DNA of 27,847 nt from NCBI GenBank assembly GCA_045606885.1, contig JAZUSV010000240.1, positions 1 through 27,847 of the forward strand. Reading direction: 5' to 3'. Positions within the stretch are counted from its first letter, which is position 1. Each line of letters begins with the position of its first letter. Below, piece after piece: positions 8,457 to 27,665 of the stretch. The translations under genes were made by a program, and so were the position numbers. The notes beneath the pieces are model-generated. The model was not told where the DNA came from. It was given only the letters and a program-made list of their open reading frames with translations, and searched no databases. This DNA is from Candidatus Gastranaerophilales bacterium. Lineage in GTDB: Bacteria; Cyanobacteriota; Vampirovibrionia; Gastranaerophilales; Gastranaerophilaceae.

Positions 8457-9680
8457 GTGCTTAATAAGACAATAAATATTTTTGAAAATACCGACTTTAA
8501 CACCTTTGCTTCAGAAATTGGTGGAGCAATTAAAGGTGCTTGCGAAAAATTTTGGGAACAAGACATAAAAATCGCAATACAAGCAGTTAACAGCTTCAGA
8601 GAAATCCGTGACGAAAAACTTATTTCAAATATTGATTTTTTCTCAAGCCAAATTAAAGTAGAAAACCACAAGCCTATTTTAATTAGACTAAGCAAAGAAT
8701 TTATTGAATACATCCTAGATTCTAATCTTAGAAGCTCAAACGCCAAATTTGAATTCACAAAATTAACCCCGCTCGAAGTAAAAATTTTGAATGGTTTTTG
8801 CGAATTTTTATACAAAAGATTAAAAGAAGTGCTAATTTCTCCAAAAGAAGCAAAATTAAGCGAAAAGAGCGAAAAATACGTTAATATTGTATTTATTACA
8901 GAACCTAAAAACGAATTATGCTCAAAAATTATGATATCCATACCCCAAGATAGAATTAATTTAGCGCCACTTAAAAAAACGATATCCTTTAAAGATGAAG
9001 ACTTTTTGACTTCAAAAACAACCGTGAAAATTAAAGCAGGTAGCTCAAAAATTACATTTGATGACCTTCAAAACCTTGCACCTGATGACATTATCGTTTT
9101 AGAAGAAAGTGAATTATCGAAATTAACGCTAATTTCAGGAGATGTTGAACAAAAATTCAACATCAAAATTAATCCATCTTTAATTGTTAATCTTAACAAT
9201 GACGAAGATGACGAAGAAGATATACAAAACACTTATGAAGAGGTAACCATGGGAAAAAATTTGTGGGACGATATACAAATTGAAATAGATGCCGAATTTG
9301 ATAAAGTTAAAATGACAATTGGCGAACTAAAACAAATTACACAAGGTCAAATCATAGATTTGGGCTCAATTTTCGACAATGAAATTTCACTATATGTTGA
9401 AGATAGAAAAGTTGCCAAAGGCGAATTGATTATTATAAACGATAGATATGCCGTTAGATTAAACGAAGTGTTAAACTCCAATAGTCAAAGTGCGCCAATT
9501 AACGCAAAAGTTAACGTTGCAGCGCAACCGCAACCTAAACCTCAGGCTGCCACACAAGCAAAACCACAGGCACCTCAAACAAAACCACAGGCACCTCAGG
9601 CAAAACCAACACCAGCCAAAGTGCAACCAAAAGCACAAAATGATACAGAAGAATTTGACTATTCAGACTTTGAAAAATAA
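8457..9680 (+). CDS. FliM/FliN-family C-ring protein: degenerate FliM middle domain + SPOA1 + FliN-like SPOA2 (SctQ-like architecture) + low-complexity tail
   Basis: LTPLE (FliM LTxIE); SPOA1 (TTVKIKAGSSKITFDDLQNLAPDDIIVL); SPOA2 (LWDDIQIEIDAEFDKVKMTIGELKQITQGQIIDL...VAKGELIIINDRYAVRL); first gene before fliO-P-Q-R. Confidence 0.85.
   Translation: MLNKTINIFENTDFNTFASEIGGAIKGACEKFWEQDIKIAIQAVNSFREIRDEKLISNIDFFSSQIKVENHKPILIRLSKEFIEYILDSNLRSSNAKFEFTKLTPLEVKILNGFCEFLYKRLKEVLISPKEAKLSEKSEKYVNIVFITEPKNELCSKIMISIPQDRINLAPLKKTISFKDEDFLTSKTTVKIKAGSSKITFDDLQNLAPDDIIVLEESELSKLTLISGDVEQKFNIKINPSLIVNLNNDEDDEEDIQNTYEEVTMGKNLWDDIQIEIDAEFDKVKMTIGELKQITQGQIIDLGSIFDNEISLYVEDRKVAKGELIIINDRYAVRLNEVLNSNSQSAPINAKVNVAAQPQPKPQAATQAKPQAPQTKPQAPQAKPTPAKVQPKAQNDTEEFDYSDFEK
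9240..9251 (+). promoter_or_regulatory. Putative internal translation start (GAGGT-AACC-ATG, Met265) for a separate 143-aa FliN-like product
   Basis: In-frame ATG at 9249 directly before SPOA2, preceded by the SD-like GAGGT at 9240-9244. Confidence 0.6.
9559..9608 (+). repeat. 21-bp tandem repeat (~2.4 copies) encoding (A/T)KPQAPQ
   Basis: CAAAACCACAGGCACCTCA starts at 9559 and 9580; a partial copy starts at 9601. Confidence 0.85.
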
Positions 9681-9694
9681 GGAACCATTTTAAA

Positions 9695-10240
9695 ATGATG
9701 ACATACGTTACAGCTTTTATTTTCTACACTCTTGCGATGATTGGCATTATGCTAATCGGATTTGTTGTGTATAAAAAAACATACGAAAATGCAAAAGGTG
9801 ACAATAAAGGCTTAATTAAAATAATTGATAGCACCCCAATCGGCAACAAAAAAATGCTTCTTGTAGTGAAAATAAAAAATGAAAAATTTTTAATTGCCTC
9901 AGGAGTTGAGCACACAACATTTTTATCAAAACTAGAAGACGACAATACAAGCGAAAAAGCGGAATTTAGCAAAGAAATAACCAAAGAAGAAGTACAAAGA
10001 AGTGTTCTTGATGAAATCTATGAACAAAATTTTGCACCAACAAAAAAAGAGGTGCGTTTTGATGACCCTCAAAAAGTAAGAGCAGCAAAAATTCAAAAAC
10101 AATTCAAAGAATTATACGAAAAAGACGAAGAACCTCAAATTAAAACAAACAAAGAGGCTAACAATCGCAAAGAAGTAATGAAACAACTGCTTAAAAAATT
10201 AAATTCTGAATCGAATATCAAAAACGGGAGCAATTTTTAA
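9695..10240 (+). CDS. fliO: FliO-like export gate chaperone with charged C-terminal extension
   Basis: N-terminal TM helix, then IKIIDSTPIGNKKMLLVVKIKNEKFLIASGVEHTTFLSKLE (FliO beta domain); sits directly before fliP with a 1-nt overlap. Confidence 0.8.
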   Translation: MMTYVTAFIFYTLAMIGIMLIGFVVYKKTYENAKGDNKGLIKIIDSTPIGNKKMLLVVKIKNEKFLIASGVEHTTFLSKLEDDNTSEKAEFSKEITKEEVQRSVLDEIYEQNFAPTKKEVRFDDPQKVRAAKIQKQFKELYEKDEEPQIKTNKEANNRKEVMKQLLKKLNSESNIKNGSNF

Positions 10241-10881
10241 TGGATAGTTTATTAAAAGACATAAACCCTGTTTTCCAGCTATTAATTACAATGGCGGCAT
10301 TTTCGCTATTGCCATTTATTTTTGTTTCAATGACCCCATTTTTAAGATTTACCGTTGTTTTTTCAATGCTAAAAACCGCAATGGGAACAAATTCTGTTCC
10401 ACCAGCAATAACCTTAATTGGCTTATCTTTAATTTTGACAATTTACACAATGTCTCCAACTTTTGACAACATGTATAAGGCATATCAAGTGCCATATCAA
10501 AAAAATAAAAATGTCGTAGAGGCACTAAACGCAAGCTCTAAACCTCTAAAAGAATATATGCTGAAACAAACACGTCAATCAGATTTAGCGTTTTTTGTTG
10601 AAAAAACAAGGCGTGTCGCTCCTAAAACACCAGATGAGTTAACGCTATGGGAAGTTGCACCTGCATATATTATTTCTGAACTTAAAACAGCTTTTGAAAT
10701 CGGTTTTATAATATATGTGCCGTTTATTGTTTTAGACCTTGTGGTCGCAAACATATTGCTAGCACTCGGTATGTTTATGTTATCTCCTCAAATCGTTTCA
10801 ACTCCGTTTAAACTTTTAATATTTATCGCAGTTGACGGATGGAGCTTAATTGTAAAAGGACTTGTGGAGAGTTTTAATTAA
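10240..10881 (+). CDS. fliP: Type III export gate subunit FliP/SctR
   Basis: LLPFIFVSMTPFLRFTVVFSMLKTAMG, VPP, PAYIISELKTAFEIGF, PFKLLIFIAVDGWSLI. Confidence 0.95.
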   Translation: MDSLLKDINPVFQLLITMAAFSLLPFIFVSMTPFLRFTVVFSMLKTAMGTNSVPPAITLIGLSLILTIYTMSPTFDNMYKAYQVPYQKNKNVVEALNASSKPLKEYMLKQTRQSDLAFFVEKTRRVAPKTPDELTLWEVAPAYIISELKTAFEIGFIIYVPFIVLDLVVANILLALGMFMLSPQIVSTPFKLLIFIAVDGWSLIVKGLVESFN

Positions 10882-11378
10882 TGGAAGCTTTAGTAGAATT
10901 TTTAGGAAAAGGATTTATGGTAATGCTATCAGTTAGCTTACCTTGTGTTCTAATGGCGGCTCTTGTTGGTTTAATTGTTGGTATTTTACAAGCAGTTACC
11001 CAAGTTCAAGAACAAACAATCGCAGCAGCACCTAAAATTATTCTTGTATTCCTTACAATAGTCGTTTTAGGCGGTTATTTTATCAAAATTCTAACAAATT
11101 ATATTTACGAAGGAACAAACCTTGCTTTTAATATAATTCCTAAAAAAGAAGATTACGTTCTTCCGCCTAATTATTACAAATATACTCGTCCGTTTAGCGC
11201 CGAAATGCAAGATAAAATTAAAAATGACAGCTCTTTAAACAAAGCGCTTTTAAACAACGGCAACATCTCTTGGGATAAAAAAGCAACAAAAAGACAAATT
11301 TACATCAACTCTAAACAAACACCAACAGTTGAACCTAATTTCATTGAAAGAATTAAAATTCAACAAAACAGCAAATAG
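10881..11378 (+). CDS. fliQ: Export gate subunit FliQ with ~78-aa C-terminal extension
   Basis: GLIVGILQAVTQVQEQTIAAAPKI signature; 165 aa versus ~89 aa for canonical FliQ. Confidence 0.92.
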   Translation: MEALVEFLGKGFMVMLSVSLPCVLMAALVGLIVGILQAVTQVQEQTIAAAPKIILVFLTIVVLGGYFIKILTNYIYEGTNLAFNIIPKKEDYVLPPNYYKYTRPFSAEMQDKIKNDSSLNKALLNNGNISWDKKATKRQIYINSKQTPTVEPNFIERIKIQQNSK

Positions 11379-11387
11379 GAAATAATA

Positions 11388-12167
11388 TTGGACGAAATTT
11401 TAAAACAGTTTGCTCTTTATTTTCCGGAACTAAACAATGCTTTGGGTGCCGGCATTATGGTGTTTTTAAGACTCGTTGGAATGATGAGATTAGCTCCTGT
11501 TTTATCTAAAAGCGAAATTCCTGCAATGGTAAGATTATCTTTTGCGCTAATTTGTACAGTAATTTTAGTTGGAGTAATTAAGCCCCAGCCACCTGGTCCC
11601 GACACACCAATTTTTATGTGCATGTTTTTAAATTTTATTTTTGGTGCAATCATAGGTTACGTTGCAAACTGCATTTTAGCAGCGATACTTGCTGGCGGAG
11701 ATATGATTAACACGCAAATGGGTATGTCTTCAGCAATGATAATGGACCCAAGCACAAAAAGCCAAGTAAGTATTATGGCAAACTTTTTTTCAGTCTTGAC
11801 TCTATTAATTTTTATTTATTCTGGTGGTGTATATTGGCTATTTAATGCACTTATTAAAAGCTTTGAACTATTTCCTATGTATAGCGTTAATTTCCATTTT
11901 GAAAACATTGTTAATGTCGAATATTTAAGCAAAATTACAGGAAACATTTTATTCACAGGCTTACACATTGCAGGTCCAATTTTGCTTGCAACCTTAGCTC
12001 AAGATATCATTTTAGGGATTATTTCAAAAACAGCACCACAAGTTAACGTATTTTCTTTAAGCTTCTTATTTAAACCTGTAATGGGTGCTTTTATTTTGAT
12101 TGTAATTTTGCCAATGCTAATCAATGTAATAACAGATTATTTAACATCACATGCTAGCATATTTTAA
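11388..12167 (+). CDS. fliR: Export gate subunit FliR
   Basis: FLRLVGMMRLAP, AGGDMINTQMG, ISKTAPQVNVFSLSFLFK; multi-TM; TTG start with AGGA RBS. Confidence 0.95.
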   Translation: MDEILKQFALYFPELNNALGAGIMVFLRLVGMMRLAPVLSKSEIPAMVRLSFALICTVILVGVIKPQPPGPDTPIFMCMFLNFIFGAIIGYVANCILAAILAGGDMINTQMGMSSAMIMDPSTKSQVSIMANFFSVLTLLIFIYSGGVYWLFNALIKSFELFPMYSVNFHFENIVNVEYLSKITGNILFTGLHIAGPILLATLAQDIILGIISKTAPQVNVFSLSFLFKPVMGAFILIVILPMLINVITDYLTSHASIF

Positions 12168-12874
12168 ATTTTAATTTCTTTTTTTATTCTTTTTGGCTTG
12201 TCTGGTTTTGGTTTCATGCATGTCCAAAGAACATTTTTAATGTATGGTGCAATTAAAATAATTAAAATGCTGAAAATAATGTCGTATAAAATATTGCCAA
12301 GACTAATTTCAGTCAAAATTGGAATTACCAAACCAAAGCTGATAACTCTAAATATCGCAAGTAAAATACAGTACAAAAATCCACAAATATGAATTGCTAA
12401 AACACCAAAAACAGCGGCAAGTATTCTATATTTGAAATTTTGAGAAATATTTAAAATATATCCTGCAATTGCAATTGCAAATATAAAACCAAGCATATAG
12501 CCAAATAAATAGTTTTGAAGATAATCAAATCCACCGCCAAAAACAAAAATCGGCCAAATAAAAAAGCCTACTATCATATAACAAGCAAACATCAACGTAG
12601 AATAGCTTTTACCTAAAATATATATGATAAATATCATTGCCGGCAACAATGGGCTGTATGAAACAATTTTTGTAAAACTTACAAATCCTTCCCCTGGCAA
12701 CAATTTAGACCAAGGATGAGAAAAGTTTATTTGTGTAAAAGTTGCTACAATTAAAATTAAAAAGCACAAACCGCACACCACAAGAGTGCCGATTGTTAAT
12801 GGTGTACGCTCACCTTTATGAATATATTGTTGAAAAATATCCTTATAACGTTTGTTTATCATAAACTCTCTCAA
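12164..12874 (-). CDS. bioY: BioY-family ECF S-component (divergent)
   Basis: YMIVGFFIWPIFVFGGGFDYLQNYLFGYMLGF matches BioY YLxxGxxxLPVFAxGGGxxYxxxPTxGYLxGF; ~6 TM helices. The start may be ATG 12862. Confidence 0.75.
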   Translation of the reverse strand: MREFMINKRYKDIFQQYIHKGERTPLTIGTLVVCGLCFLILIVATFTQINFSHPWSKLLPGEGFVSFTKIVSYSPLLPAMIFIIYILGKSYSTLMFACYMIVGFFIWPIFVFGGGFDYLQNYLFGYMLGFIFAIAIAGYILNISQNFKYRILAAVFGVLAIHICGFLYCILLAIFRVISFGLVIPILTEISLGNILYDIIFSILIILIAPYIKNVLWTCMKPKPDKPKRIKKEIKI

Positions 12875-12902
12875 TAACTTAATTGTATCACCACAATAAT
12901 CT

Positions 12903-13406
12903 TTATACGAGGGATTTGTTTAATTCATTATATAAATCTTTATATTTTTTATCAAAAATGTTTTCACTCCACATAATGAGAGCATCTTCGTTGTTATCTT
13001 GATAATATTTTTTTCTAACACCCAAAGATTTAAAACCAAATTTTTCATACAAATGAATAGCTTTTTCGTTAGACACCCTAACTTCAAGAGTAATGTATTT
13101 AATTTTTTCCCTATAACATTCATCAATTGAAGCTAAAAGCAATCTATGCGCTAATTTTTTGTTTTGATAATCAGGATGAACAGACAAATTTGTGACATGA
13201 GCTTCGTCCACAATTTTCCAAATTCCCATGTATCCAACACATTTTTTATCAGAATTTAGCACACAACGATATGTTGAAATTTTGTTTGATAATTCCGTTA
13301 AAAAAGATTCTCTTGACCAATGGTGCGCACCGTAACACATTTCTTCTATTTGAAGAATGTCATCGATATCATCATGGGTCATTTCTCGAATTGTAAAATT
13401 GCTCAT
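12903..13406 (-). CDS. rimI: Ribosomal-protein-alanine N-acetyltransferase
   Basis: HVTNLSVHPDYQNKKLA, ITLEVRVSNEKAIHLYEKFGF, RKKYYQDNNEDALIM. ATG 13406 preferred; the ORF track starts at 13445. Confidence 0.93.
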   Translation of the reverse strand: MSNFTIREMTHDDIDDILQIEEMCYGAHHWSRESFLTELSNKISTYRCVLNSDKKCVGYMGIWKIVDEAHVTNLSVHPDYQNKKLAHRLLLASIDECYREKIKYITLEVRVSNEKAIHLYEKFGFKSLGVRKKYYQDNNEDALIMWSENIFDKKYKDLYNELNKSLV

Positions 13407-13421
13407 GGTTTTATAGTAGCA
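13404..13421 (-). promoter_or_regulatory. Extended -10 (TGcTACTAT) 6 nt before the rimI ATG; leaderless-type
   Basis: The minus strand reads TGCTACTAT-AAAACC-ATG. Confidence 0.55.
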
Positions 13422-13451
13422 TATCAATTTTTTAATAAAATACATTTTTTA

Positions 13452-13488
13452 CAATAAAAAATGCCACCCTATAAAAGAGTGGCATTTT
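13452..13488 (-). terminator. Intrinsic terminator after speD
   Basis: Minus-strand stem AAAATGCCACTCT / AGGGTGGCATTTT (one G-U pair) followed by a U-rich tail. Confidence 0.85.
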
Positions 13489-13503
13489 CAAATTTTATTT
13501 TTC

Positions 13504-13953
13504 TTAAAAACTTTCTGCAATTAAGAAAGATTTTTGTTCAACTTGGTCTGCATCCATCAAACCACGATTTAATTGCGTATATTTTGCGCCTCTAGAATTA
13601 AATTTTCTTTTTAAGAATTCGTATGAAACCTTTGGATCGCATTGCTCACCGCAAGTAAATAAATCTACTGCGGCATATCCAAACTCAGGCCATGTATGAA
13701 TTGCCAAATGACTTTCTGAAATGATTACAACACCTGAAACACCGTGTGGAGCAAATAAATGGAAACATTTATTAACGATTGTAGCGCCACATTCAAGAGC
13801 TGCGTCTAACATATATTTTTCTACTAATGCCGGATTATTTAAAACGTTTGGGTCACAATCAAAAAATTCTGCTAATATGTGACGTCCTAAGTATGCTTGT
13901 TGTTGTGTTTCGGTAGCTTTTTCAGTCATTCCGATAGGTGTCATTACTGCCAA
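13504..13953 (-). CDS. speD: S-adenosylmethionine decarboxylase proenzyme (class 1B, SpeD/SpeH)
   Basis: GRHILAEFFDCD and GVSGVVIISE|SHLAIHTWPEFGYAAVDLFTCG (pyruvoyl-forming ESH site); TTG start with AAGGGGG RBS. Confidence 0.93.
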   Translation of the reverse strand: MAVMTPIGMTEKATETQQQAYLGRHILAEFFDCDPNVLNNPALVEKYMLDAALECGATIVNKCFHLFAPHGVSGVVIISESHLAIHTWPEFGYAAVDLFTCGEQCDPKVSYEFLKRKFNSRGAKYTQLNRGLMDADQVEQKSFLIAESF

Positions 13954-14128
13954 TTCATATTCCCCCTTATGGTTTACTATTACATTTGTTGCAAGAACAA
14001 ATATACACTATAACAAAAAAACATGCAACATGAAAACTTGACTATTTTTACATAAAATTTTAACAAATTTTAATATGATTTCAATTTAGCCTTCTGTTCT
14101 TATTTTTTGAGTGCTAGAATAATTTTAT

Positions 14129-14926
14129 ATGATTAAAGATGTGCAAAATGAAAAAGATTTGAGAAATATTCCAATTCAAAAAGTTGGCGTAAAAGATGTT
14201 GAAATTCCACTAAGAATTGAAAGAAAAACTCAAAACAACAAACCAGAGCTTGAAACGGTTTATGCTAAAGCTAAAATGTCTGTGAGCTTACCTTGCGAAT
14301 ACAAAGGAACTCACATGTCTCGTTTTATTGAAATTTTGCACGATTGCCAAAAAGAAACCCTTGTTTCAACCGATGTTGAGCAAGTTCTTTGCAGTATGAA
14401 AAAAAAATTAGATGCAAAAAGCGCATATTTAAAATTCAGCTTTAAATATTTTCTCAAAAAACAAGCGCCTGTATCTAAATTAAAATCTTTAATGTGTTAC
14501 GATTGCGCTTTTGAAGGCGAAATCGACGAAAATAACGACTATAAATTTTATCTTATTACACATGTTCCAATCACAACTCTTTGTCCTTGTTCTAAAGAAA
14601 TTTCACAATACGGAGCACACAACCAAAGAGCATTATTAAAAATCAAAGTTAGTTATGATAATGACAAACATATTTGGCTTGAAGATTTAATTCAAATGGC
14701 GGAAAATTGCGCTAGTTGCGAAATTTATCCTCTTTTAAAAAGAGAAGATGAAAAATTTGTCACAGAAACGGCGTATCAAAATCCTAAATTTGTGGAAGAT
14801 GTTATTAGGGACATTGTTTCAAAATTAAATTCAAACGAAATAATAAATTTCTACGAAGTTGAAGTTGAAGCCTTTGAATCAATCCACGCTCACAATGCTT
14901 GGGCATATCAAAAATGTGCAAAATAA
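14129..14926 (+). CDS. folE2: GTP cyclohydrolase IB (FolE2)
   Basis: KGTHMSRFIE, TTLCPCSKEIS, GAHNQR, NPKFVEDVIR, ESIHAHNA. Confidence 0.95.
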   Translation: MIKDVQNEKDLRNIPIQKVGVKDVEIPLRIERKTQNNKPELETVYAKAKMSVSLPCEYKGTHMSRFIEILHDCQKETLVSTDVEQVLCSMKKKLDAKSAYLKFSFKYFLKKQAPVSKLKSLMCYDCAFEGEIDENNDYKFYLITHVPITTLCPCSKEISQYGAHNQRALLKIKVSYDNDKHIWLEDLIQMAENCASCEIYPLLKREDEKFVTETAYQNPKFVEDVIRDIVSKLNSNEIINFYEVEVEAFESIHAHNAWAYQKCAK

Positions 14927-14940
14927 GATAAAATAGATGT

Positions 14941-15837
14941 ATGATTGAAATTAAAAATATAGTTTTTACCTCTAACGGTCTAAATTTTATAAAATACTTA
15001 AGGTGTTTTATAAATCATCTTTTGCCTTTAAGAATTAAATTTGCAAACGAAAGTTTTGTGGCACTTGTTGATAATAAAAACACAGCACTAATTACTCTTG
15101 ATAAAGATTCAAAAAGCCACACTCGTTTTAAAATTACAAAATTAATATTAGAAGAACACTCTGCTTCTGTTGCAGTTCAATTGGTTAACTATGTTATTTC
15201 AAAATACGGAGCTCAAGGGGCAAATTCCTTCTATGTTGTGGTAGATGAGCGCCAAGCAGACTTACTAAATATTTTTAAAAACGAAATGAGCTTCAGAGCT
15301 TGCGGATATGAATATTTGTATAAAATTAATTCTATAAACACAACACAACAAATATTTTTAAGTCCATTCAAAAAAGAACGAGTTAACGAAATTTGCAATT
15401 TTTATAATGAAAATATTAATTCATTCAACAAAGTTTTATTTTCAAGACAAAATTATCAATTTTCAAACGGCTTTGAAAAATATGTTTTTTATAATGATGA
15501 TGAAACAAAAATTTTAGGTTATTTTGAAGTAGCAACTAAAAACAATTGCGATTATTACATCAATTTTTCAATAGATTTTGCCTACAATATCTACATCATA
15601 GACGCAATAAAATTTATCTATTTAAAACTAAAACATAAGCAAAAAAACTTCAACCTATACATCAAAGTTAAAGATTATTTCATGAATTCCAAAGAATTAT
15701 TGGCGATTTTAAAAGAAAACAACATTGAATTTACTTCAAAAAGCCAAATTTTAGCAAAAGATTACTATCGAGAAGTTAAAGAAAATAATCTTTTCAAAAA
15801 TGCAAAAATTATCTTCAACGACCCAACAACTGCTTAA
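14941..15837 (+). CDS. Hypothetical protein, possible degenerate tandem GNAT-like fold
   Basis: 298-aa ORF co-oriented 14 nt after folE2; alternating beta/alpha pattern and a ...LLNIFKNEMSFRACG segment reminiscent of GNAT motif B. The family call is weak. Confidence 0.55.
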   Translation: MIEIKNIVFTSNGLNFIKYLRCFINHLLPLRIKFANESFVALVDNKNTALITLDKDSKSHTRFKITKLILEEHSASVAVQLVNYVISKYGAQGANSFYVVVDERQADLLNIFKNEMSFRACGYEYLYKINSINTTQQIFLSPFKKERVNEICNFYNENINSFNKVLFSRQNYQFSNGFEKYVFYNDDETKILGYFEVATKNNCDYYINFSIDFAYNIYIIDAIKFIYLKLKHKQKNFNLYIKVKDYFMNSKELLAILKENNIEFTSKSQILAKDYYREVKENNLFKNAKIIFNDPTTA

Positions 15838-15839
15838 AA

Positions 15840-17198: not shown

Positions 17199-17521
17199 CA
17201 GTAAACAAAATACCTATCAAAATCTATATCATCAAACGAACAAAGAAGTTGATAGATTTCATCTTCTTCATCAAGTCTTTGATATTTATATTCGTCAAAT
17301 TTCCAAAATTTAGGATTTATCCCGCTACAGCGCACAATATTATGTTCAGATAATATTTTTAATTTCTTTTTAACTATATCTAAATCAAGCCCAACTCGCT
17401 TGGACAATTCAACAGCCGTAATTCCTTGGGGGTTTGAATGTTTTTCCGGAGTCAAAAACATAAGCTCTAAACCAACGAGCTTCAATGCCTTATCTTCATT
17501 TTCGTAATCATATTCAAACAT
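17198..17521 (-). CDS. Small winged-HTH protein
   Basis: GITAVELSKRVGLDLDIVKKKLKILSEHNIVRC fits an HTH plus wing; its stop overlaps the rlmD ATG. Confidence 0.65.
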   Translation of the reverse strand: MFEYDYENEDKALKLVGLELMFLTPEKHSNPQGITAVELSKRVGLDLDIVKKKLKILSEHNIVRCSGINPKFWKFDEYKYQRLDEEDEIYQLLCSFDDIDFDRYFVY

Positions 17522-17561
17522 ACTACTATAATACCCTAATTTGTGTTATTATTTAAGTATG
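17519..17561. promoter_or_regulatory. Back-to-back leaderless-type promoters
   Basis: Minus: TATTAT-AGTAGT-ATG(17521). Plus: TGtTATTAT-TTAAGT-ATG(17559). Confidence 0.5.
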
Positions 17562-17834
17562 AAAAAGATTTTTTTCATACCTTTAATATTATTGCTTTTT
17601 CAAGCGCCATCAATTGCAGTCACTTTTGGTCATTTTTATTCTGAAACTGATTATGGTTTAATAGACGGCTTTAAATGGAATTTCTTTAATCGTGAAGGAA
17701 AACCTGTTGTTCAAATTAAATCTGAAACAAAAGAAGAACAAGAAAGAATTGAAAGAGAAAAAAATAAGCCTAAAGAAGAACAAGACGACATTAGGCTTTA
17801 CAGATTTATGCTTGATAATACTGTAGCTTTTTAA
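17559..17834 (+). CDS. Small exported hypothetical protein
   Basis: MKKIFFIPLILLLFQAPSIA is signal-peptide-like. ATG 17559 preferred; the ORF track starts at TTG 17541. Confidence 0.7.
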   Translation: MKKIFFIPLILLLFQAPSIAVTFGHFYSETDYGLIDGFKWNFFNREGKPVVQIKSETKEEQERIEREKNKPKEEQDDIRLYRFMLDNTVAF

Positions 17835-20443: not shown

Positions 20444-20459
20444 TATTTATCCTCTGATT

Positions 20460-21569
20460 CTAAATGTCTTTCACTTTTAATTCGCAACACATCTGACAAG
20501 AGTTAAACACCTGCGAATATTTAAGATTTTTTCTAAAACAACAATATTTTGTTGAATTAATTATTTCTTTCAAACTTTGTTCTTTTATATTTCCCATTTT
20601 ATATGATAAACAAGGATAAATATCCCCCATAGGATTTATTATTGTATTTGAATATGGATACAAACAGGGATTATAAATTTCTTTTACGTCTTTATCTTTA
20701 TATTCTGTGAAAAATTTTCTAATTAAAGCAATTTCTTTTTCACTATCTGTGTTATCAAATTTTGGCGAAAAACGAATTTTTGTTTTAGAAAATCTTTTCA
20801 TTTTGCATATTTCACGATAAACCTTTTCAAACTCATCCATATCAAAATATTGCTCAATTGGATATGTTGACTTATAAAAAACTTCGTCAAATGCAGTATA
20901 TAATTTTGAATTTTGTTTTAAATTGTTATTTCTCAAAAAGGAAATAGATAAATAATCAAAACCTTTATTTGTACAATATTGATATAATTTTAAAATATCT
21001 TCCAAATTATCTTTTAAAACAATTGTTTTAATATCAATCATCAACTTAGAACCTCTTTCTCTGCATTGATGTGAAAGATTGTCTAAATTATCGACTATTG
21101 TATTAAAAATTCCTTCTTTGCCTCTATTCTTATCATGATTTTCCTTCCAACCATCTAAAGAAACACTTAAAAGCAACATTTTTGACTCAATAAAGGAATC
21201 AATTATTTTATCGTTAATTAAAACACCATTTGTAACTACATTAACTTTGCCCATTACTCTTTTTGAAGTTTCTTCCAAAATGTCACAAAAATCATTTCGG
21301 ATTAACGGTTCTCCACCAACTAAAGTTACAAAAGAATAAAATGGGATTTGATCAATTATATTAAACCAATCATTTGTACTTAATTCATCTTTAACCCTAT
21401 CTTGTCCTACATAACAATATGGGCAATTCAAATTACACAAATGAGTTAATTCAAAGAAATATCTCAAAGGTAAAATTGCTTTATTTCTTTTTTCCATAAA
21501 GCGACAGTAATTTATTGCGCCATAGGCGTTTCGGACAAAGTCAAAAATTTTAGAAGGGCTTAAATCCAT
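20460..21569 (-). CDS. Radical SAM protein with C-terminal SPASM/Twitch-type auxiliary cluster domain
   Basis: CNLNCPYC (CxxxCxxC), GGEP, TNG, VSLDG; C-terminal CLYPY...GDIYPC...GNI...CQMC. Confidence 0.9.
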   Translation of the reverse strand: MDLSPSKIFDFVRNAYGAINYCRFMEKRNKAILPLRYFFELTHLCNLNCPYCYVGQDRVKDELSTNDWFNIIDQIPFYSFVTLVGGEPLIRNDFCDILEETSKRVMGKVNVVTNGVLINDKIIDSFIESKMLLLSVSLDGWKENHDKNRGKEGIFNTIVDNLDNLSHQCRERGSKLMIDIKTIVLKDNLEDILKLYQYCTNKGFDYLSISFLRNNNLKQNSKLYTAFDEVFYKSTYPIEQYFDMDEFEKVYREICKMKRFSKTKIRFSPKFDNTDSEKEIALIRKFFTEYKDKDVKEIYNPCLYPYSNTIINPMGDIYPCLSYKMGNIKEQSLKEIINSTKYCCFRKNLKYSQVFNSCQMCCELKVKDI

Positions 21570-21581
21570 AGTTTAATTATA
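21567..21581 (-). promoter_or_regulatory. Consensus -10 (TATAAT) 6 nt before the radical SAM ATG; leaderless-type
   Basis: The minus strand reads TATAAT-TAAACT-ATG. Confidence 0.6.
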
Positions 21582-21641
21582 CTCTATTTTTCACATAAAA
21601 GTAAGAGTTATATGATATTATTAATTAAAAAAGGAGTTTAT

Positions 21642-22526
21642 ATGAACCACGAATTTAAAGTTGACTATGAAAAATGTGTAAAATGCGGTATGTGCATTGA
21701 AAATTGCCCAACAAAAGCACTATCACCCGATGATTACAAATCTCCAAAAATGGAACATGCTAAAAATTGTATGTTATGCCAACATTGTCTTGCGATTTGT
21801 CCTGTTGGCGCAATTTCAATTCAAGGAAAAAACCCTGATGAATCTGCACCAATTAAACAAATTAACAGCGACGATATTTTAAATTTAATTCAATCAAGAA
21901 GAAGTATTCGAAAATATAAGCAAGAAAATGTTGACAAAGAAACAATCCAAAAATTAAAAGATATGCTAAATTATGTTCCAACAGGAAAAAATAACCACGC
22001 TCTACATTTTTCATTCATTGAAGATATCAATGTTATGCACGATTTTAGAGCAAAAGTTAACAGCGCTATTATCAACTTTTTAAACAAAAAACCAATTAAA
22101 TATCTATCAGAAAAATTTAATAAATTTGATAAAATGAAAAACACTCTTTTAAAGGGAAATGATGTAATTTTTAGAGATGCGCCTCATCTTGTAGCTGTAA
22201 GCGCTCCAATTGACTCTTCTTGTCCGCAACAAGATGGAATTATTGCACTATCATACTTTGAATTATACGCAAATTCCTTAGGTTTGGGCACTTGTTGGTG
22301 TGGATATGCTCAAGCTGTGCTAAAATTTTTCCCTGAATTTATTGAATACTTACAAATTCCAAAAGGACACATTCCAATTTATGTTATGCTTTTTGGCTAT
22401 AAAAATATTGAATACAAAAGAACCACTCAACCAACTCCATACTCTTTTACAACAGTTGAAAGACACGAAGTTGAAAACAATATTTTCCAAAAATTAAAAA
22501 GAACTTTTTGGAACATTATAAAATAG
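21642..22526 (+). CDS. Nitroreductase family protein with N-terminal 2x[4Fe-4S] ferredoxin domain
   Basis: CVKCGMCIENCP and CMLCQHCLAICP; RRSIRKY; GLGTCWCG. ATG 21642 has an AAGGAG RBS; the ORF track starts at 21612. Confidence 0.92.
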   Translation: MNHEFKVDYEKCVKCGMCIENCPTKALSPDDYKSPKMEHAKNCMLCQHCLAICPVGAISIQGKNPDESAPIKQINSDDILNLIQSRRSIRKYKQENVDKETIQKLKDMLNYVPTGKNNHALHFSFIEDINVMHDFRAKVNSAIINFLNKKPIKYLSEKFNKFDKMKNTLLKGNDVIFRDAPHLVAVSAPIDSSCPQQDGIIALSYFELYANSLGLGTCWCGYAQAVLKFFPEFIEYLQIPKGHIPIYVMLFGYKNIEYKRTTQPTPYSFTTVERHEVENNIFQKLKRTFWNIIK

Positions 22527-22565
22527 CCTAAATTCGTTCATAAATCTTAACAACATTGAAAAACG

Positions 22566-22594
22566 CTCCCAATGATATATTATATTATTGGGAG
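22566..22594. promoter_or_regulatory. Inverted repeat CTCCCAAT-N13-ATTGGGAG overlapping an extended -10 (TGaTATATT) upstream of fliF
   Basis: Perfect 8-bp arms at 22566-22573 and 22587-22594. Confidence 0.55.
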
Positions 22595-22634
22595 TAGTTA
22601 TAACTTTGGATAAAATTAGTATTGGAATAAATCA

Positions 22635-24401
22635 GTGAACGAACACGTTAAATTATTAATTGAGGACATTAAAAAGCTTTGGCTTAAATTAGACATAAAT
22701 CAAAAATTTTCTATTGCGGCATTACTAGTAGCAATGTTTGTCGTGGGCATATTTTTCATCTTTAAAGCAACTGAACCAAATTGGACAGTTTTATATTCAG
22801 ACTTATCTAAAGAAGATGTTAAAGGAATAACCGAAAGCTTGAAAAAAAGCGGTTGGGCATACAAGCTTTCAGAAGACAAAACAGCAATTCTAGTTAGAAA
22901 TCAAGACAAAGAAGACTTAAGACTTTTTGTTGCAGAAAATGACTTAATTAAAGACACCACAGGCGGTTTTGAATTATTAGACGACCTTCAATTAGGTTCA
23001 ACTGATTTTAAAAACAAACTTACAAAACAAAGAATATTCCAAGGAGAATTAACTCGCTCTATTGAAAAAATCAATGGTGTTAAAAAAGCAAGAGTTCAAC
23101 TAGCTGAACCTGAACGCTCAATTTTTTCAGACAACGACGAAGAGCCTTCTGCAAGCGTTGTTTTAATTTTAGAACCAAGCGTTAGATTAAAAGCAAGCCA
23201 AATTCTTGCAATTAAAAATCTTGTAGCATATTCTGTTCCAAGATTAACAAACGACAGAGTGTTTATTACTGACCAATTTGGAAATGTTTTATCTGAAGAT
23301 GTTTCAAAAAATTCTTCAGACATGCAAACATATAGAACAAACTTTGAAAAAGAAGCAGCTAAAAAAATCAAAGATACTCTTGAAACCATCATGGGAAAAG
23401 ACAATGTTTCTGTTCAAGTTTCTTCCGTTATGGATTTTAATCAAACAAGAGCAACAATTGAAAGCTATACTCCAAACAAAGACACAAACGCAGGCGTTGT
23501 TTTAACTCGTCAAGGAGAAAAGGAAGTTTATTCAAACCCTAAGGATTTACCTTCCAACCAAAAACAACAACAAAACCAAGGTGCTGCTCCAACTCAAGCA
23601 CAACAACTAGCGCAAGCTCAAATGAACAATATCGCTGCAGCGCAAAACGAAAATCCGCTATTAAACCAAGCGCAAGGAGCAAGTGCAGCGCAAAATGTGG
23701 TTGAATTACCATTAAACGAAACACCTGCTAAAACAACAAATTATTACGACACTGAATACGGCAAAAATAAAGATGACGTTAAAAAATTAAGCTACGAAAA
23801 AGAAAAATCAGCAACAACTTACGCTGTGACAAAAGAAATCAAGCAAGTAGTTTATGCTCCAGGTTCAGTCATTAGAATGAGCGTTGCAGTTGCCGTAAAT
23901 AAAATTTTAACAGATGCAGAAAAAGATGAAATTAAAAATCTTGTTATGGCAGCAGCTGGTATGGATTCTTCAAGAGGCGATGTTGTAAACGTATCTAGCT
24001 TAAAATTCACAGGCATAGATAAAACTGAAGAACTAGAACAAAGCAAAAAAGAACAACAAGAATTCGTTTTAGAAGTACTAACATTCATATTTAAAAATGT
24101 TTCTCCTGTATTTATTATTCTAATTCTTGGTTTAATTGCGCTACACAACTTTGGAAATATATTCAAAGCTCCAAAACCAGAAGAAGACGAAATTATTACA
24201 GAAGAAGAAACTTTTGACAATCTTCCAAGTTTTGACCCATATTTAGCACTTCAAAACAACCAAACAAACACCGATGATTTCTATCAACAAGAAATTCAAT
24301 TTACTTCTGTTGTAGACAAAAAGAAAAGCGAAATCATCAACTCAATTCTTGAAAATCCTGAAGAAGCAGCAAGAATTCTAACATCATATATTAAAGAATA
24401 A
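22635..24401 (+). CDS. fliF: MS-ring protein FliF
   Basis: TM1, WTVLYSDLSKED, GFELLD, QGELTRSIEKINGVKKARVQLAEPERSIF, PSASVVL, RGDVVNV, TM2 and the FliG-binding C-terminal helix NPEEAARILTSYI. Confidence 0.95.
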   Translation: MNEHVKLLIEDIKKLWLKLDINQKFSIAALLVAMFVVGIFFIFKATEPNWTVLYSDLSKEDVKGITESLKKSGWAYKLSEDKTAILVRNQDKEDLRLFVAENDLIKDTTGGFELLDDLQLGSTDFKNKLTKQRIFQGELTRSIEKINGVKKARVQLAEPERSIFSDNDEEPSASVVLILEPSVRLKASQILAIKNLVAYSVPRLTNDRVFITDQFGNVLSEDVSKNSSDMQTYRTNFEKEAAKKIKDTLETIMGKDNVSVQVSSVMDFNQTRATIESYTPNKDTNAGVVLTRQGEKEVYSNPKDLPSNQKQQQNQGAAPTQAQQLAQAQMNNIAAAQNENPLLNQAQGASAAQNVVELPLNETPAKTTNYYDTEYGKNKDDVKKLSYEKEKSATTYAVTKEIKQVVYAPGSVIRMSVAVAVNKILTDAEKDEIKNLVMAAAGMDSSRGDVVNVSSLKFTGIDKTEELEQSKKEQQEFVLEVLTFIFKNVSPVFIILILGLIALHNFGNIFKAPKPEEDEIITEEETFDNLPSFDPYLALQNNQTNTDDFYQQEIQFTSVVDKKKSEIINSILENPEEAARILTSYIKE

Positions 24402-24414
24402 GAAAGACAGATAA

Positions 24415-25437
24415 ATGGCAAATATACGTTTAGAACAAATGACACCAACACAGAAGGTTGCAGCCCTTTTAATTACCCTAGGGCCAAGCGCAGCCTCTGA
24501 AATTATGAAAAATATCGAAGATGACGGTGCTCTTGAACAAATTACAATCGAAATTGCCGGCTTAGCAAAATTACCACAAGATGTCATTGAATCTATCGTT
24601 GATGAATTCCACGCAGTCTTTCAAGCTTCTTCAATGCTTGCAGCAGGCGGTATGGCGTACGCTCGTGAACTATTAGAAAAAGCTTATGGAGCTAACGAAG
24701 CAAATGACATTTTAAACAGATTAGTTACAATTTTAAACTCTAATCCATTCCAATTTTTTAACGAAGCAGACCCTGTGCAATTAGCTACTTCCTTCCAAAA
24801 TGAAAATCCTCAACTGATTGCGCTAATTTTGGCATATTTAAAACCAGAACAATCTGCAAAAGTTTTAAATTGCTTAGCTCCTAACATTCAACATCGTGTT
24901 GCACTAAAAATTGCACAAATGCAAACAACAAATCCTGAAGTTATTTCAGAAGTTGAAAAAATTGTTGAATCGAGATTTTCTAATGTTGTTGCTTCTGACT
25001 TCTCACAAGCAGGCGGCACAAAAACTCTTGCTAATATCTTAAACAGCACAGATAGGGCAACTGAAAAGAATGTAATTGAAATGATGGAAGTTGAAACCCC
25101 TGAATTAGCAGAAGATGTAAGAAGTCTTATGTTCGTATTTGAAGACATTATCCAGCTTGACGATTCTTCTATTCAAAGGGTTTTAAGAGAAGTTGACTCA
25201 AGAGATTTAGCTACATCTTTAAAGGGTGCTAAAGAAGAAGTTAAACAAAAAATTCTTAAAAACATGTCAGAACGTGCACAAAGCGTACTTTTAGAAGATA
25301 TTGAATACATGGGTCCTGTTAGAACCAAGGAAGTTCAAAAAGCGCAATCAAAAATTGTTGGCGTAATCAAAGCGCTTGAAGCAGTTGGCGAAGTTACTAT
25401 CTACCGTGGTGGTCAAGAGGACGAATTAATTGAGTAA
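24415..25437 (+). CDS. fliG: C-ring/rotor protein FliG
   Basis: QKVAALLITLG, GGMAYARELL, MFVFEDI, LKGA, NMSERA, GPVR. Confidence 0.96.
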   Translation: MANIRLEQMTPTQKVAALLITLGPSAASEIMKNIEDDGALEQITIEIAGLAKLPQDVIESIVDEFHAVFQASSMLAAGGMAYARELLEKAYGANEANDILNRLVTILNSNPFQFFNEADPVQLATSFQNENPQLIALILAYLKPEQSAKVLNCLAPNIQHRVALKIAQMQTTNPEVISEVEKIVESRFSNVVASDFSQAGGTKTLANILNSTDRATEKNVIEMMEVETPELAEDVRSLMFVFEDIIQLDDSSIQRVLREVDSRDLATSLKGAKEEVKQKILKNMSERAQSVLLEDIEYMGPVRTKEVQKAQSKIVGVIKALEAVGEVTIYRGGQEDELIE

Positions 25438-26371
25438 GTTAAAATTAAATAAAATTAATTTTGATGAATCAGATTTTCTTGTTGAGGTAACTAAAGAAAA
25501 AACAAAAGAAACAAAAACAGACAAGCCTTCACAAGTTGATATTGAAATGCAAAAAAAAGCTCAAGATTTATATACTGAAGCCAAGCTTATTTTAAATCGT
25601 GCCAAAGATGAAGCCCAACAAATTGTTGACAATGCAAATAAAGAAGCTCTTGAAATAAAAGAAAAAAACGAAGAAGAAATATTAAAAAGAAAAGAAGAAA
25701 TAATAGAGCAAGCAACTCAAAGGGCAGATGAAATAATTGAAAATGCTCAAAAAAAATCTCAAGAAGATACCCAAAACTTGATAAATTCTTCAAAAGAAAA
25801 TATTGAACAAGAAAGAATAGAAACTATTAAAAATGCCTATGAAGAAGGGCACAGGGAAGGACTTGAGCATATTCAAGAAGAACTTGAAGAAAAAATTGCT
25901 GACTTCAATAACTTTTGCAAAAATCAATATGAAGTAAGAGATAAAATTTTAAAATCAGCAAACAAAGATATCTTGGACTTAGTTATAAATATCTCAAGAA
26001 AAATTCTTTTGAAAGAAATCGATTTCGCTGTGCTTGATAAAATAATTAAAAGCACAATTTCTCTTTTAGAGAAAAAAGAAAATATAAGCATAATTTTGTC
26101 TGAAAAATATGCAAAATTATTATATGAACACCAAAAAAAGAGTTTGGCACAAGATATTGAATTTAATTTTGAAGATTTTAAACAATATGACAACTTCAAT
26201 ATTGTCTACAACCCTTCATTTGACGAAGATACGATTATTGTAGAAAACCTAAAAGAAAGATATGACGCATCAGTTAACTCTCAGCTAGACGTTATTATAA
26301 GAAATATTTATGATAATTCTCAAAATGGAAAACTAGATTTAGAACAATACACGCAAGATGAAGCTGAATGA
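25430..26371 (+). CDS. fliH: FliH/SctL-type ATPase stator protein
   Basis: Long coiled coil with AYEEGHREGL (AxxxG(xxxG) repeat); lies between fliG and fliI and overlaps both. Confidence 0.85.
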   Translation: MSKLKLNKINFDESDFLVEVTKEKTKETKTDKPSQVDIEMQKKAQDLYTEAKLILNRAKDEAQQIVDNANKEALEIKEKNEEEILKRKEEIIEQATQRADEIIENAQKKSQEDTQNLINSSKENIEQERIETIKNAYEEGHREGLEHIQEELEEKIADFNNFCKNQYEVRDKILKSANKDILDLVINISRKILLKEIDFAVLDKIIKSTISLLEKKENISIILSEKYAKLLYEHQKKSLAQDIEFNFEDFKQYDNFNIVYNPSFDEDTIIVENLKERYDASVNSQLDVIIRNIYDNSQNGKLDLEQYTQDEAE

Positions 26372-27665
26372 ACTTGAAAAAATCGTTAATAGCTCTAAAC
26401 CAATTTCAAAAATCGGAAGAATTATTGAAATCATTGGGCTTACAATAATTGCTGATGGCCCTGTTTCTTCCATTGGGGATTTGTGTCACATTGTTCAAGA
26501 CGGAATTAAAGACATAATTTATTGTGAAGTTGTAGGTTTTAGAAAAGATTGTGTTTTATTGATGCCCCTAGGTTCGATTGAAGGACTAAGAGCAGGCGCA
26601 AAAGTAATTAACACAGGAACAAGCATGAAAGTTAAGGTTTCTGAAACTTTATTGGGAAGAGTTTTAGATGGGCTTGGAAACCCAATTGACGATAAAGGCG
26701 AAATCATCGCCGACGAATATTACCCAACAAACGCCGCTATTATTAATCCAATGGATAGAAAACCAATTGATGAACCACTTTCTCTTGGACTTAGAGCAAT
26801 AGATGGATTAAACACTATAGGAAAAGGTCAAAGGGTAGGAATTTTTGCAGGCTCAGGCGTTGGAAAATCAACAACTCTTGCAATGATGGCAAAAAATACA
26901 GAAGCTGACATCAACGTAATAGCGCTGATTGGAGAACGTGGAAGAGAAGTTAGAGAATTTATTGAAAACACCATGGGTGTTTCTGGGATGAAGCGCTCAA
27001 TTGTTGTTTGTGCAACATCTGAACAACCTGCCTTAGTTAAAATTAAAGCAAGCTTTGTAGCTTGCGCTATTGCTGAATATTTTAGAGACAAAGGCAAAAA
27101 TGTTCTTTTTATGCTAGATAGCGTAACTCGTATCGCACTAGCACAAAGAGAAGTAGGACTCGCAGTTGGTGAACCGCCAGCAACTCGTGGTTATACTCCT
27201 TCCGTTTTTGCGCTTTTACCTAAATTTTTAGAACGTGCAGGAGCCAGCAAAACAGGAACAATCACAGGTTTATATACTGTTCTTGTTGAAGGGGACGATA
27301 TGAATGAACCCATTGCAGACGCCGCAAGAAGTATTTTAGACGGTCACATTGTTTTATCTCGTGCCCTTGCTCATAAAAATCATTATCCTGCAATTGATAT
27401 TTTGCAAAGCATTTCTCGTGTTATGAATAACGTTGTAGATGATGAGCATAAAGCTGCAGCAAGCAAAATCAGAAATCTAATGGCAAGTTATGCTAAAAAC
27501 GAGGACCTGATTAGCATTGGCGCATACGCAAAAGGAACGGATGCTTCAACAGACAAAGCTATTGCACTAAACGACAAAATCAATGCATATTTAATTCAAT
27601 CCCTTGAAGAAAACTCTGATTTTGAAATTGCCAAAAATGAATTAATCAATTTATCTAAATTATAA
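26358..27665 (+). CDS. fliI: Type III export ATPase FliI/SctN
   Basis: GQRVGIFAGSGVGKST (Walker A), IGERGRE, LFMLDSVTR, GEPPATRGY, ILDGHIVLSR, YPAIDILQSISR. Confidence 0.96.
   Translation: MKLNELEKIVNSSKPISKIGRIIEIIGLTIIADGPVSSIGDLCHIVQDGIKDIIYCEVVGFRKDCVLLMPLGSIEGLRAGAKVINTGTSMKVKVSETLLGRVLDGLGNPIDDKGEIIADEYYPTNAAIINPMDRKPIDEPLSLGLRAIDGLNTIGKGQRVGIFAGSGVGKSTTLAMMAKNTEADINVIALIGERGREVREFIENTMGVSGMKRSIVVCATSEQPALVKIKASFVACAIAEYFRDKGKNVLFMLDSVTRIALAQREVGLAVGEPPATRGYTPSVFALLPKFLERAGASKTGTITGLYTVLVEGDDMNEPIADAARSILDGHIVLSRALAHKNHYPAIDILQSISRVMNNVVDDEHKAAASKIRNLMASYAKNEDLISIGAYAKGTDASTDKAIALNDKINAYLIQSLEENSDFEIAKNELINLSKL

Follow-up and report, generated by a model that had tools for sequence, protein, structure and literature searches.

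A contig of 27,847 nucleotides (nt) from Candidatus Gastranaerophilales bacterium (GenBank assembly GCA_045606885.1, contig JAZUSV010000240.1, read on the forward strand), which we refer to throughout as the window, carries two cassettes of flagellar-type genes: a gate cassette, in which a FliM/N fusion gene is followed by fliO, fliP, fliQ and fliR, and a rotor cassette of fliF, fliG, fliH and fliI. The window very probably holds pieces of two paralogous flagellar-type type III export systems that in this genus lie, by chance, about 10 kilobases (kb) apart. We call the ordinary flagellum, to which the rotor cassette belongs, system A, and the second flagellar-type export system, to which the gate cassette belongs, system B. 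Our best overall explanation, to which we assign a probability of about 0.78, is that the gate cassette encodes the membrane gate and cytoplasmic platform of a motorless system B that is near-universal in the order. Families were assigned with Pfam and NCBIfam models, and the nine named genes of the window are as follows.

8457..9680, + strand: FliM/N fusion protein, 407 amino acids (aa), system B (FliMN_C)
9695..10240, + strand: FliO, system B (PF04347, TIGR03500), syntenic in the genomes G003, G010, G026 and G085
10240..10881, + strand: FliP of B type, 213 aa (PF00813, 224 bits)
10881..11378, + strand: FliQ, system B, 165 aa against about 89 (PF01313, residues 5-75 only)
11388..12167, + strand: FliR, system B (PF01311, TIGR01400)
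22635..24401, + strand: FliF1, the membrane-supramembrane (MS) ring protein of system A (TIGR00206, 231 bits, above the cut-off)
24415..25437, + strand: FliG, the rotor of system A (FliG_N, FliG_M and FliG_C domains; TIGR00207, 346 bits)
25430..26371, + strand: FliH1, system A (PF02108)
26358..27665, + strand: FliI1, the ATPase of system A (TIGR03497 FliI_clade2, 628 bits)

All nine open reading frames (ORFs) are intact. A first-pass annotation of this DNA, made from its letters alone, had these genes in place and in the right families, and the family calls confirm it, as they do the unrelated housekeeping genes (oxaloacetate decarboxylase subunits, rimI, speD, folE2, rlmD, a radical SAM protein and a ferredoxin) that it saw on both sides of each cassette. 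FliI1 indeed keeps its catalytic motifs, with Walker A (AGSGVGKS) at residue 164 and Walker B (VLFMLDS) at residue 249, and the window contains none of the genes flhA, flhB, fliE, flg, mot and che. From this layout the annotation proposed that the two cassettes form one stand-alone, chemotaxis-uncoupled export machine, a possible flagellum-injectisome intermediate, with the caveat that only 28 kb could be seen. That caveat was well placed: the window is the entire contig C240 of a metagenome-assembled genome (MAG) of 263 contigs and 1.44 megabases (Mb), 66% complete with 3% contamination, and a whole-genome inventory found a flagellar, motor and chemotaxis set on its other contigs, which for the rotor cassette is the very finding that the annotation had named as a refutation.

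FlhA was found on C19, FlhB on C8, rod proteins on C243 and C27, FlgK with FlgL on C191, three flagellins on C133, C188 and C77, MotA on C104, FliM with FliN on C151, FliL with a FliN-like protein on C75, and CheA and CheW on C58. The rotor cassette is part of this ordinary flagellum and looks stand-alone because flagellar genes are scattered over many loci and contigs; for system A, an export gate, MS ring, FliG, FliM/FliN, MotA, rod, hook-associated proteins, flagellin and chemotaxis proteins all occur in one genome. The window FliG is the only FliG of its genome, and every flagellated genome has a single copy that always adjoins FliF1 (PF01706). Orthologs of FliF1 are 77-89% identical within the genus, FliP-A was found in 16 of 18 sampled congeners, and the gate cluster of system A in G003 reads fliP (251 aa)-fliQ (89 aa)-fliR-flhB-flhA. 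FliF-G-H-I co-occur with FliP-A, FlhA-A and flagellin and are lost jointly with them across relatives, and therefore do not form one machine with the gate cassette; the proposed single stand-alone system is contradicted both by this co-loss and by the flagellar set of the genome itself. The changed FliG-FliM interface of the annotation is moot, because C151 encodes a true FliM, GGxG motif included, and the fusion belongs to the other system.

Two more FliN-type (SpoA) proteins were noted in this genome, one of 251 aa beside FliL (C75:1138-1893, -) and one of 96 aa beside a ThiF gene (C250:14995-15285, -). Both go with the flagellum, because the flagellum-less congener G010 has lost both, and the flagellum of this lineage seems to use several FliN paralogs.

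The remaining parts of system B lie outside the window. Among the 30 relatives in 11 genera that made up our close comparison set, FliF, FliP, FliI and full-length FlhA each fall into two classes and FliG into one, and the paralogue classes were sorted into systems A and B on the basis of synteny. Searches of the MAG with window proteins (tblastn) recovered a second FliF on C215, 27% identical to the window FliF, and a second FliI on C27, 50% identical. The order on C215 is SLT-FliE-FliF2-X317-(FliH-like), SLT being a lytic transglycosylase and X317 a protein that was read as a 322-aa ORF and is truly 317 aa long. The fullest cluster, in G026, reads flgF/G-like x2-flgB2-flgC2-SLT-fliE2-fliF2-187aa-X317-fliH2-flhA-B-fliI2, and the gate cluster of that genome (fusion-fliO-fliP of 213 aa-fliQ of about 160 aa-fliR) is separate from the other B genes. 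The parts of system B beyond the gate cassette are SLT, FliE2, FliF2, X317, FliH2, FlhA-B, FliI2, FlhB-B, FlgB2, FlgC2 and two FlgF/G-like rod proteins. The FlhB on C8 shares only 32% identity with FlhB-A, against 64% with its counterpart in a system-B-only genome. FlhB-B has an intact NPTH site, and FliI2 retains Walker A and, by alignment to FliI1, the Walker B Asp. FliF2 (541-577 aa) combines the YscJ_FliF domain with the FliF C-terminal domain, matches the fliF model at 116 bits and the SctJ model at 60 bits, and ends in a conserved ...K(I/L)K(S/N)WIE helix.

Support for two systems comes also from the distribution of these genes over a single draw of 251 Gastranaerophilales genomes from 53 genera, 234 of them high-quality. 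FliP of any type is present in 251/251 genomes (234/234 of the high-quality set) and FliF2, counted at E <= 1e-40, in 247/251 (232/234); FliG is present in 89/251 (75/234) and flagellin in 91/251 (76/234). The FliP genes divide into a B type of about 220-240 bits with an ORF of 213-225 aa and an A type of about 255-277 bits that occurs only where FliG is present. The B type is found in all 251 genomes and is the sole FliP copy wherever FliG is absent, and system B is kept in 162/251 genomes that have no FliG_C (PF01706) match; in the high-quality set FliP-B is universal (234/234), 159/234 genomes lack FliG and 158/234 lack flagellin. The genera with a single B-type FliP coincide exactly with those lacking FliG and flagellin. 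Beyond the order, B-type FliP occurs in most other families of the class, usually with an A-type copy alongside.

Two flagellum-less genomes show what remains when system A is gone. In G010, a congener of the window genome (97% complete, 20 contigs), we did not find FliF1, FliG, FliI1, FliP-A, FlhA-A, flagellin, FliM, FliN or the longer MotA-type copy, and one rod-family match is left; it has FliF2 as its only FliF and retains fusion-FliOPQR, SLT-FliF2-X317-FliH2-FlhA-B with a FliE2-sized gap between SLT and FliF2, FliI2 and a protein with only the C-terminal domain of FlhA. The genes flanking its fusion-FliOPQR cluster are identical in kind to those of the window. Its sole MotA_ExbB match belongs to a shorter class (ORF of ~220 aa) that is present in 5/5 genomes alongside the longer MotA-type copy and is probably ExbB/TolQ. 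The closed, FliG-less 1.87-Mb genome G085, fetched whole, has all B genes intact at about seven loci, and tblastn found in it no FliG, FliH1, FliM, FliN, FliL, MotA, CheW, FlgI, FlgK, FlgL or flagellin (FlgE and FlgH were not searched). The idea of a chemotaxis-uncoupled export machine thus stands for the gate cassette, which is kept without FliG, FliM/N, MotA, CheW, FlgK/L or flagellin, and falls for the rotor cassette. One genome of the window's genus, G150, has no FliG and only B-type FliP, yet one flagellin gene; it may represent a recent flagellum loss that is still in progress.

System B shows no sign of decay in these genomes. Its ORFs are intact in three closed genomes, and approximate ratios of nonsynonymous to synonymous substitution rates (dN/dS) among the window genome, G003 and G010 are 0.02-0.05 for FliP, 0.03-0.06 for FliR, 0.04 for FliI2, 0.06-0.12 for FliQ, 0.12-0.16 for FliF2, 0.13-0.19 for X317, 0.16-0.22 for the fusion and 0.15-0.41 for FliO, the housekeeping flanks giving 0.07-0.21. 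Pairs that include G010 fall within the same range as the others. As measured in the window's genus, the B genes are under purifying selection, G010 included; relaxed selection, which the first-pass annotation had named as an outcome that would speak against an active machine, was not seen in these approximate ratios.

The proteins of the gate cassette are themselves distinctive. Along its chain the fusion has a FliM-middle-like domain, two SpoA domains (SpoA1 and SpoA2) separated by an acidic linker, a highly variable Pro/Gln-rich linker and a C-terminal peptide; two FliMN_C matches fall within its one ORF, and it lacks the GGxG motif. Its AlphaFold model, built on a 21-sequence alignment, has a predicted local distance difference test score (pLDDT) of 74-96 over residues 10-175, and residues 1-175 were modelled as a FliM-middle/CheC fold (Z 13.2 to Salmonella FliM, 8umd_C; the top 11 fold matches are all FliM, FliY, CheC or CheX), which upholds its reading as a FliM/N fusion with two SpoA domains. 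Against the SpaO_YscQ model it scores 61 bits, below the cut-off. It is the sole FliMN_C protein remaining in flagellin-less G010 and is also present in G085. The C terminus (9648..9677, +) is a near-invariant acidic peptide, (E/D)(E/D)FDYSDFEK, in which F400, D401 and F405 are invariant and E398, Y402, S403, D404 and E406 are conserved at >=90%; it is probably a short linear docking motif. At the SpoA2 boundary, an in-frame GAGGT stands 4 nt before an ATG (9240..9251, +) whose Met265 is kept in 18/21 aligned orthologs, a candidate internal start that could, by analogy with SctQ, yield a SpoA2-only product.

FliP-B lacks the signal peptide and N-terminal region and begins where mature FliP begins, which bears out in part its earlier description as SctR-like; in sequence it is nearer to flagellar FliP (180 bits against PDB structures) than to SpaP (152 and 140 bits). 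The extension noticed in FliQ proved real and conserved across the order: about 78 hydrophilic residues (about 11142-11378) whose motifs are kept in G003, G010, G026, G085 and the locus L059. The last of these (CAYXRM010000004.1, 7974-12011) is labelled 'Gammaproteobacteria', wrongly; it is not system B in another phylum, because the neighbouring genes encode proteins 60-80% identical to those of Gastranaerophilales, at 35% guanine-plus-cytosine (GC) content. An extra 151-aa ORF lies between fliQ and fliR in its gate cluster. Tail-to-tail with fliR-B in the window is a 236-aa ORF (12164-12874, -) that has no family match; it occupies the same place in G003 (77% identity) and G010 (53%), not in G085, and a link to system B is possible.

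X317 occupies the fliG position of the B operon. It has no Pfam or NCBIfam match, its homologs listed with a source name are all 'hypothetical' and all from this lineage, and Foldseek returned nothing from the PDB at E <= 0.001 and only its own nameless family from the AlphaFold DB clusters. Its model is all-helical (pLDDT 87.7). A complex model places FliF2 residues 546-577 on X317 residues 183-251 with a score of 0.64, where the best control scored 0.00. Of solved complexes 58/80 attain that mark, and of mismatched pairs 2/110; binding of X317 to the C-terminal helix of FliF2 is thus supported by the model. Four lines, each weak by itself, point to FliG: the operon position, an hhalign register, local fold matches of residues 181-249 to FliG_N and FliG_M, and language-model features whose nearest named families are all FliG. 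We infer that X317 may be a very diverged FliG_N-like adaptor. Short paralogs of its N-terminal half (187-236 aa) were noted inside the B cluster of G026 (L067:3843-4406, -) and standing alone in G085 (L107:2213-2923, -), and a Melainabacteria cluster of about 190 aa in the protein Atlas matches them.

A further protein, of about 485 aa and soluble, joins a 130-aa N-terminal part to the cytoplasmic C-terminal domain of FlhA (C107:5655-7106, -, the same as L025). It is present in the window genome and in 30/30 relatives, the FliG-less ones included (ortholog at G085:1501920-1503398), and in G026 it adjoins a hook-like gene cluster; it might regulate, or compete at, the export gate. In G003 (L075:8689-18567), fliI2 lies divergent from a system A cluster, SLT2-flgF-flgG-239aa-202aa-FlgI-like (374 aa)-...-flgK-flgL; G010 lacks the SLT2-flgK-flgL cluster and has fliI2, and there are therefore two SLT paralogs, one per system. 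Gene neighbourhoods yielded no FliJ-like, ruler-like or chaperone gene that could be attributed to system B. Three small ORFs follow FlhA-B in G010; they match no family and are without a homolog in G085.

Whether system B is of flagellar or injectisome type was judged from its families, its ATPase and its inventory. Among NCBIfam models the B proteins match FliI, FlhA, FlhB, FliE and FliF best, rather than Sct families. A rooted FliI/SctN tree places the B ATPases in a separate, long-stemmed clade, on the flagellar side of a branch that has 98% support in the Shimodaira-Hasegawa-like approximate likelihood ratio test (SH-aLRT), apart from the labelled YscN, SpaL and two other SctN proteins and not sister to FliI1, which groups with Firmicute-type FliI. 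Forcing B together with SctN costs 62.9 log-likelihood units (approximately unbiased [AU] test, p 0.069), and an origin as a flagellum-injectisome intermediate is accordingly not favoured; forcing B together with A costs 9.4 (AU p 0.40), and the FliI tree is compatible both with an old duplicate of A and with an outside origin. Among the best 150 matches out of 1.84 billion proteins, no representative of the FliI2 clade came from outside the lineage. The five genomes examined for secretins have one apiece. That of G085 adjoins a T2SSF platform gene, in a type IV pilus or type II secretion context, with the nearest B locus about 30 kb away, and none is dedicated to system B. The needle protein PF09392 had no match in the five genomes, with a model that also matched none of the control genomes.

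As far as these data tell, system B is a flagellum-type paralog, neither an injectisome nor the sister of injectisomes: the B ATPase groups outside SctN, and the system possesses a rod and a FliO and lacks a dedicated secretin. Like an injectisome, the non-flagellar type III secretion system (Abby and Rocha 2012, PMC3459982), it is non-motile and made from flagellar parts, with an SctQ-type tandem of SpoA1 and SpoA2 in one chain (the fusion) and a FliP of SctR length without a signal peptide; unlike one it keeps FliO, FliE and a flagellar rod, and has no dedicated SctC and, in place of a short SctJ lipoprotein ring with SctD, a full-length FliF2 (SctD was not searched). With the basal body of flagella of the Salmonella or Bacillus type it shares FliO/P/Q/R, FlhA, FlhB with NPTH, FliH/FliI, the FliF MS ring, FliE, FlgB, FlgC, an FlgF/G-type rod and a transglycosylase, as well as the gene order flgB-flgC-fliE-fliF-(fliG position)-fliH. 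It differs in that an all-helical 317-aa protein stands in the place of FliG, for whose FliG_C rotor domain and other domains the family models give no match; in that MotA, FlgI, hook, junction (hook-associated) proteins, filament and CheW are missing; and in its fused FliM and FliN with two SpoA domains and no GGxG, its FliQ with the 78-aa extension and its FliP without signal peptide.

Other bacteria offer partial parallels. In dual flagellar systems, such as the polar and lateral flagella of Vibrio and Aeromonas, either gene set drives motility with a rotor, stator, hook and flagellins of its own; a genome with systems A and B likewise holds two paralogous flagellar core sets, whereas B has none of those four parts of its own. 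Buchnera retains basal bodies of flagellar origin as putative secretion devices. Lysobacter enzymogenes OH11 is reported to keep flagellar genes without a filament, with a secretion role proposed (PMC7688988). In both, as in system B, non-motile cells retain genes for export and the basal body but no filament, and a role in secretion has been proposed. Theirs are the leftovers of a sole flagellum, whereas B is a separate, old paralog with diverged parts, present alongside a complete flagellum in about a third of the order as well as in other families of the class.

These parts would probably assemble as follows. FliF2, judged from its sequence, would form an MS-type ring around the FliPQR/FlhB/FlhA gate, and the X317 adaptor would, as the complex model suggests, bind the conserved C-terminal helix of FliF2. 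X317 could in turn carry the fusion as a non-rotating sorting platform that docks FliH2-FliI2. The gate would export the rod subunits of system B, the transglycosylase meanwhile opening the peptidoglycan. NPTH autocleavage serves, in flagella and injectisomes, the switch to a later substrate class, and because FlhB-B keeps that site a later class would be exported here too, making the machine a rod-only protein-export organelle. We put a secretion role, rather than a purely structural one, at about even odds.

Several observations weigh against this picture. The AU test does not formally reject a grouping of B with SctN, and gate genes were sorted into A and B by score and length classes, by synteny and by co-loss rather than by a gate-protein tree. 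With dS saturated (>1), the dN/dS values are approximate. The window genome is incomplete, FliP-A and FlhA-B being missing from its assembly, and a search of RNA runs found none containing the window sequence. Neither a cargo nor an outer-membrane conduit was recognised for system B (FlgH was not searched), and in flagellated species B might cooperate with the flagellum. As to X317, an hhalign comparison with the window FliG gave E 0.1; the local fold matches of residues 181-249 to FliG_N and FliG_M (VIA-align) have Z 5.7-5.8, of noise rank; the named families nearest to it in language-model features are all FliG, at scores of just 0.77-0.78; and the FliF2-X317 complex score may reflect only a resemblance to solved FliF-FliG complexes.

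Among the other explanations that we weighed, the one with most in its favour makes the rod-only basal body itself the end product: an envelope-spanning structural organelle, such as a tether, a landmark for the pole or for division, or the base of a nanotube, which the gate serves only to build and through which no further cargo is secreted. The sole recognisable substrates of B are its own rod proteins (FliE2, FlgB2, FlgC2 and the two FlgF/G-like proteins), no homolog of a hook, cap, filament, needle, dedicated secretin or FlgI accompanies them, and near-universality under strong constraint would suit a housekeeping structure; the retained NPTH autocleavage site of FlhB-B, together with a full ATPase complex and sorting platform, speaks against it, and we regard this explanation as rather unlikely. 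It is much less likely that B makes up a dual flagellar system with A, as another true flagellum that depends on A for its rotor, stator, hook and filament, and is a dead remnant where A was lost. All of its components are flagellar in type, its rod set is complete, and published readings of partial sets invoke a non-functional flagellum or genome reduction (PMC4040986, PMC3787301), but FliP-B is kept in 234/234 and FliF2 in 232/234 high-quality genomes, of which 159 are without FliG, ORFs are intact in the closed genomes, and dN/dS in G010 is as low as elsewhere; nor is B a remnant of A, because the two coexist as paralogs 27-50% identical.

We consider it highly improbable that the two cassettes form one chemotaxis-uncoupled machine intermediate between flagellum and injectisome. 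Their proximity in the window, repeated in G008 (about 11 kb), and the SctQ-like platform and FliP without signal peptide made the proposal attractive, yet G010 and about two thirds of the order keep orthologs of the gate cassette and not of the rotor cassette, the two lie on different contigs in G003, the window genome has a full flagellar, motor and chemotaxis set, and the B ATPase is outside the SctN clade. A chimeric or contaminated bin as the source of the second gene set would fit so fragmented a MAG; it is nonetheless next to inconceivable and we reject it, since both sets share single large contigs (G003 C1, G026 C1), contig GC is alike, and the B set is found in closed one-contig genomes and in all 251 sampled.

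Beyond the motorless system B, we tentatively advance, at somewhat less than even odds, the bolder proposition that it is a third ancient type III branch: a non-rotating, rod-only organelle with a FliG-derived adaptor and a fused FliM/N that exports protein independently of motility and is kept by nearly all Gastranaerophilales and most other families of Vampirovibrionia. If so, the stage postulated between flagellum and injectisome, without secretin or motor, would have a living counterpart in system B, one that evolved independently. The model of Abby and Rocha 2012 reportedly proposes a secretin-less early stage, and system B fits that stage.

Partial flagellar gene sets have been reported from Melainabacteria for more than 10 years and read as decaying flagella. 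Di Rienzi 2013 (PMC3787301) listed 13 shared 'MEL-COG' flagellum genes and read the filament-less MEL.A1 as a case of genome reduction; all of the 13 but flgE match parts of system B, several in the same local order on one ACD20 scaffold. Soo 2014 (PMC4040986) called such subsets non-functional flagella, Soo 2015 built one fliI tree, PMC5877343 is a further report of partial sets, and a recent preprint (bioRxiv 10.64898/2026.04.24.720558) finds about 25% complete sets, the rest retaining flhB, fliI and flgG with 'postulated' secretion. These are the same genes as those of system B, and the papers treat the subset as what remains of a flagellum, where we find a distinct paralogous system that coexists with a true one. 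Our search of the Melainabacteria literature found no report of a second paralogous set in flagellated members, of its near-universality or of its own platform proteins, and in the literature searched system B was previously unrecognised as a separate paralogous system.

The Gastranaerophilales, a sister group of the photosynthetic Cyanobacteria, are widespread bacteria of human and animal guts. System B confounds KEGG-style 'flagellar assembly' calls, and motility should be predicted differently from these genomes. System B is an independent natural example of the flagellar core in non-motile use, and as such bears on the origin of the injectisome; the FliF2 C-terminal helix with X317, the FDYSDFEK peptide and the FliQ extension offer testable parts. 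For an uncultured gut lineage, it points to an envelope or secretion function that is probably important.

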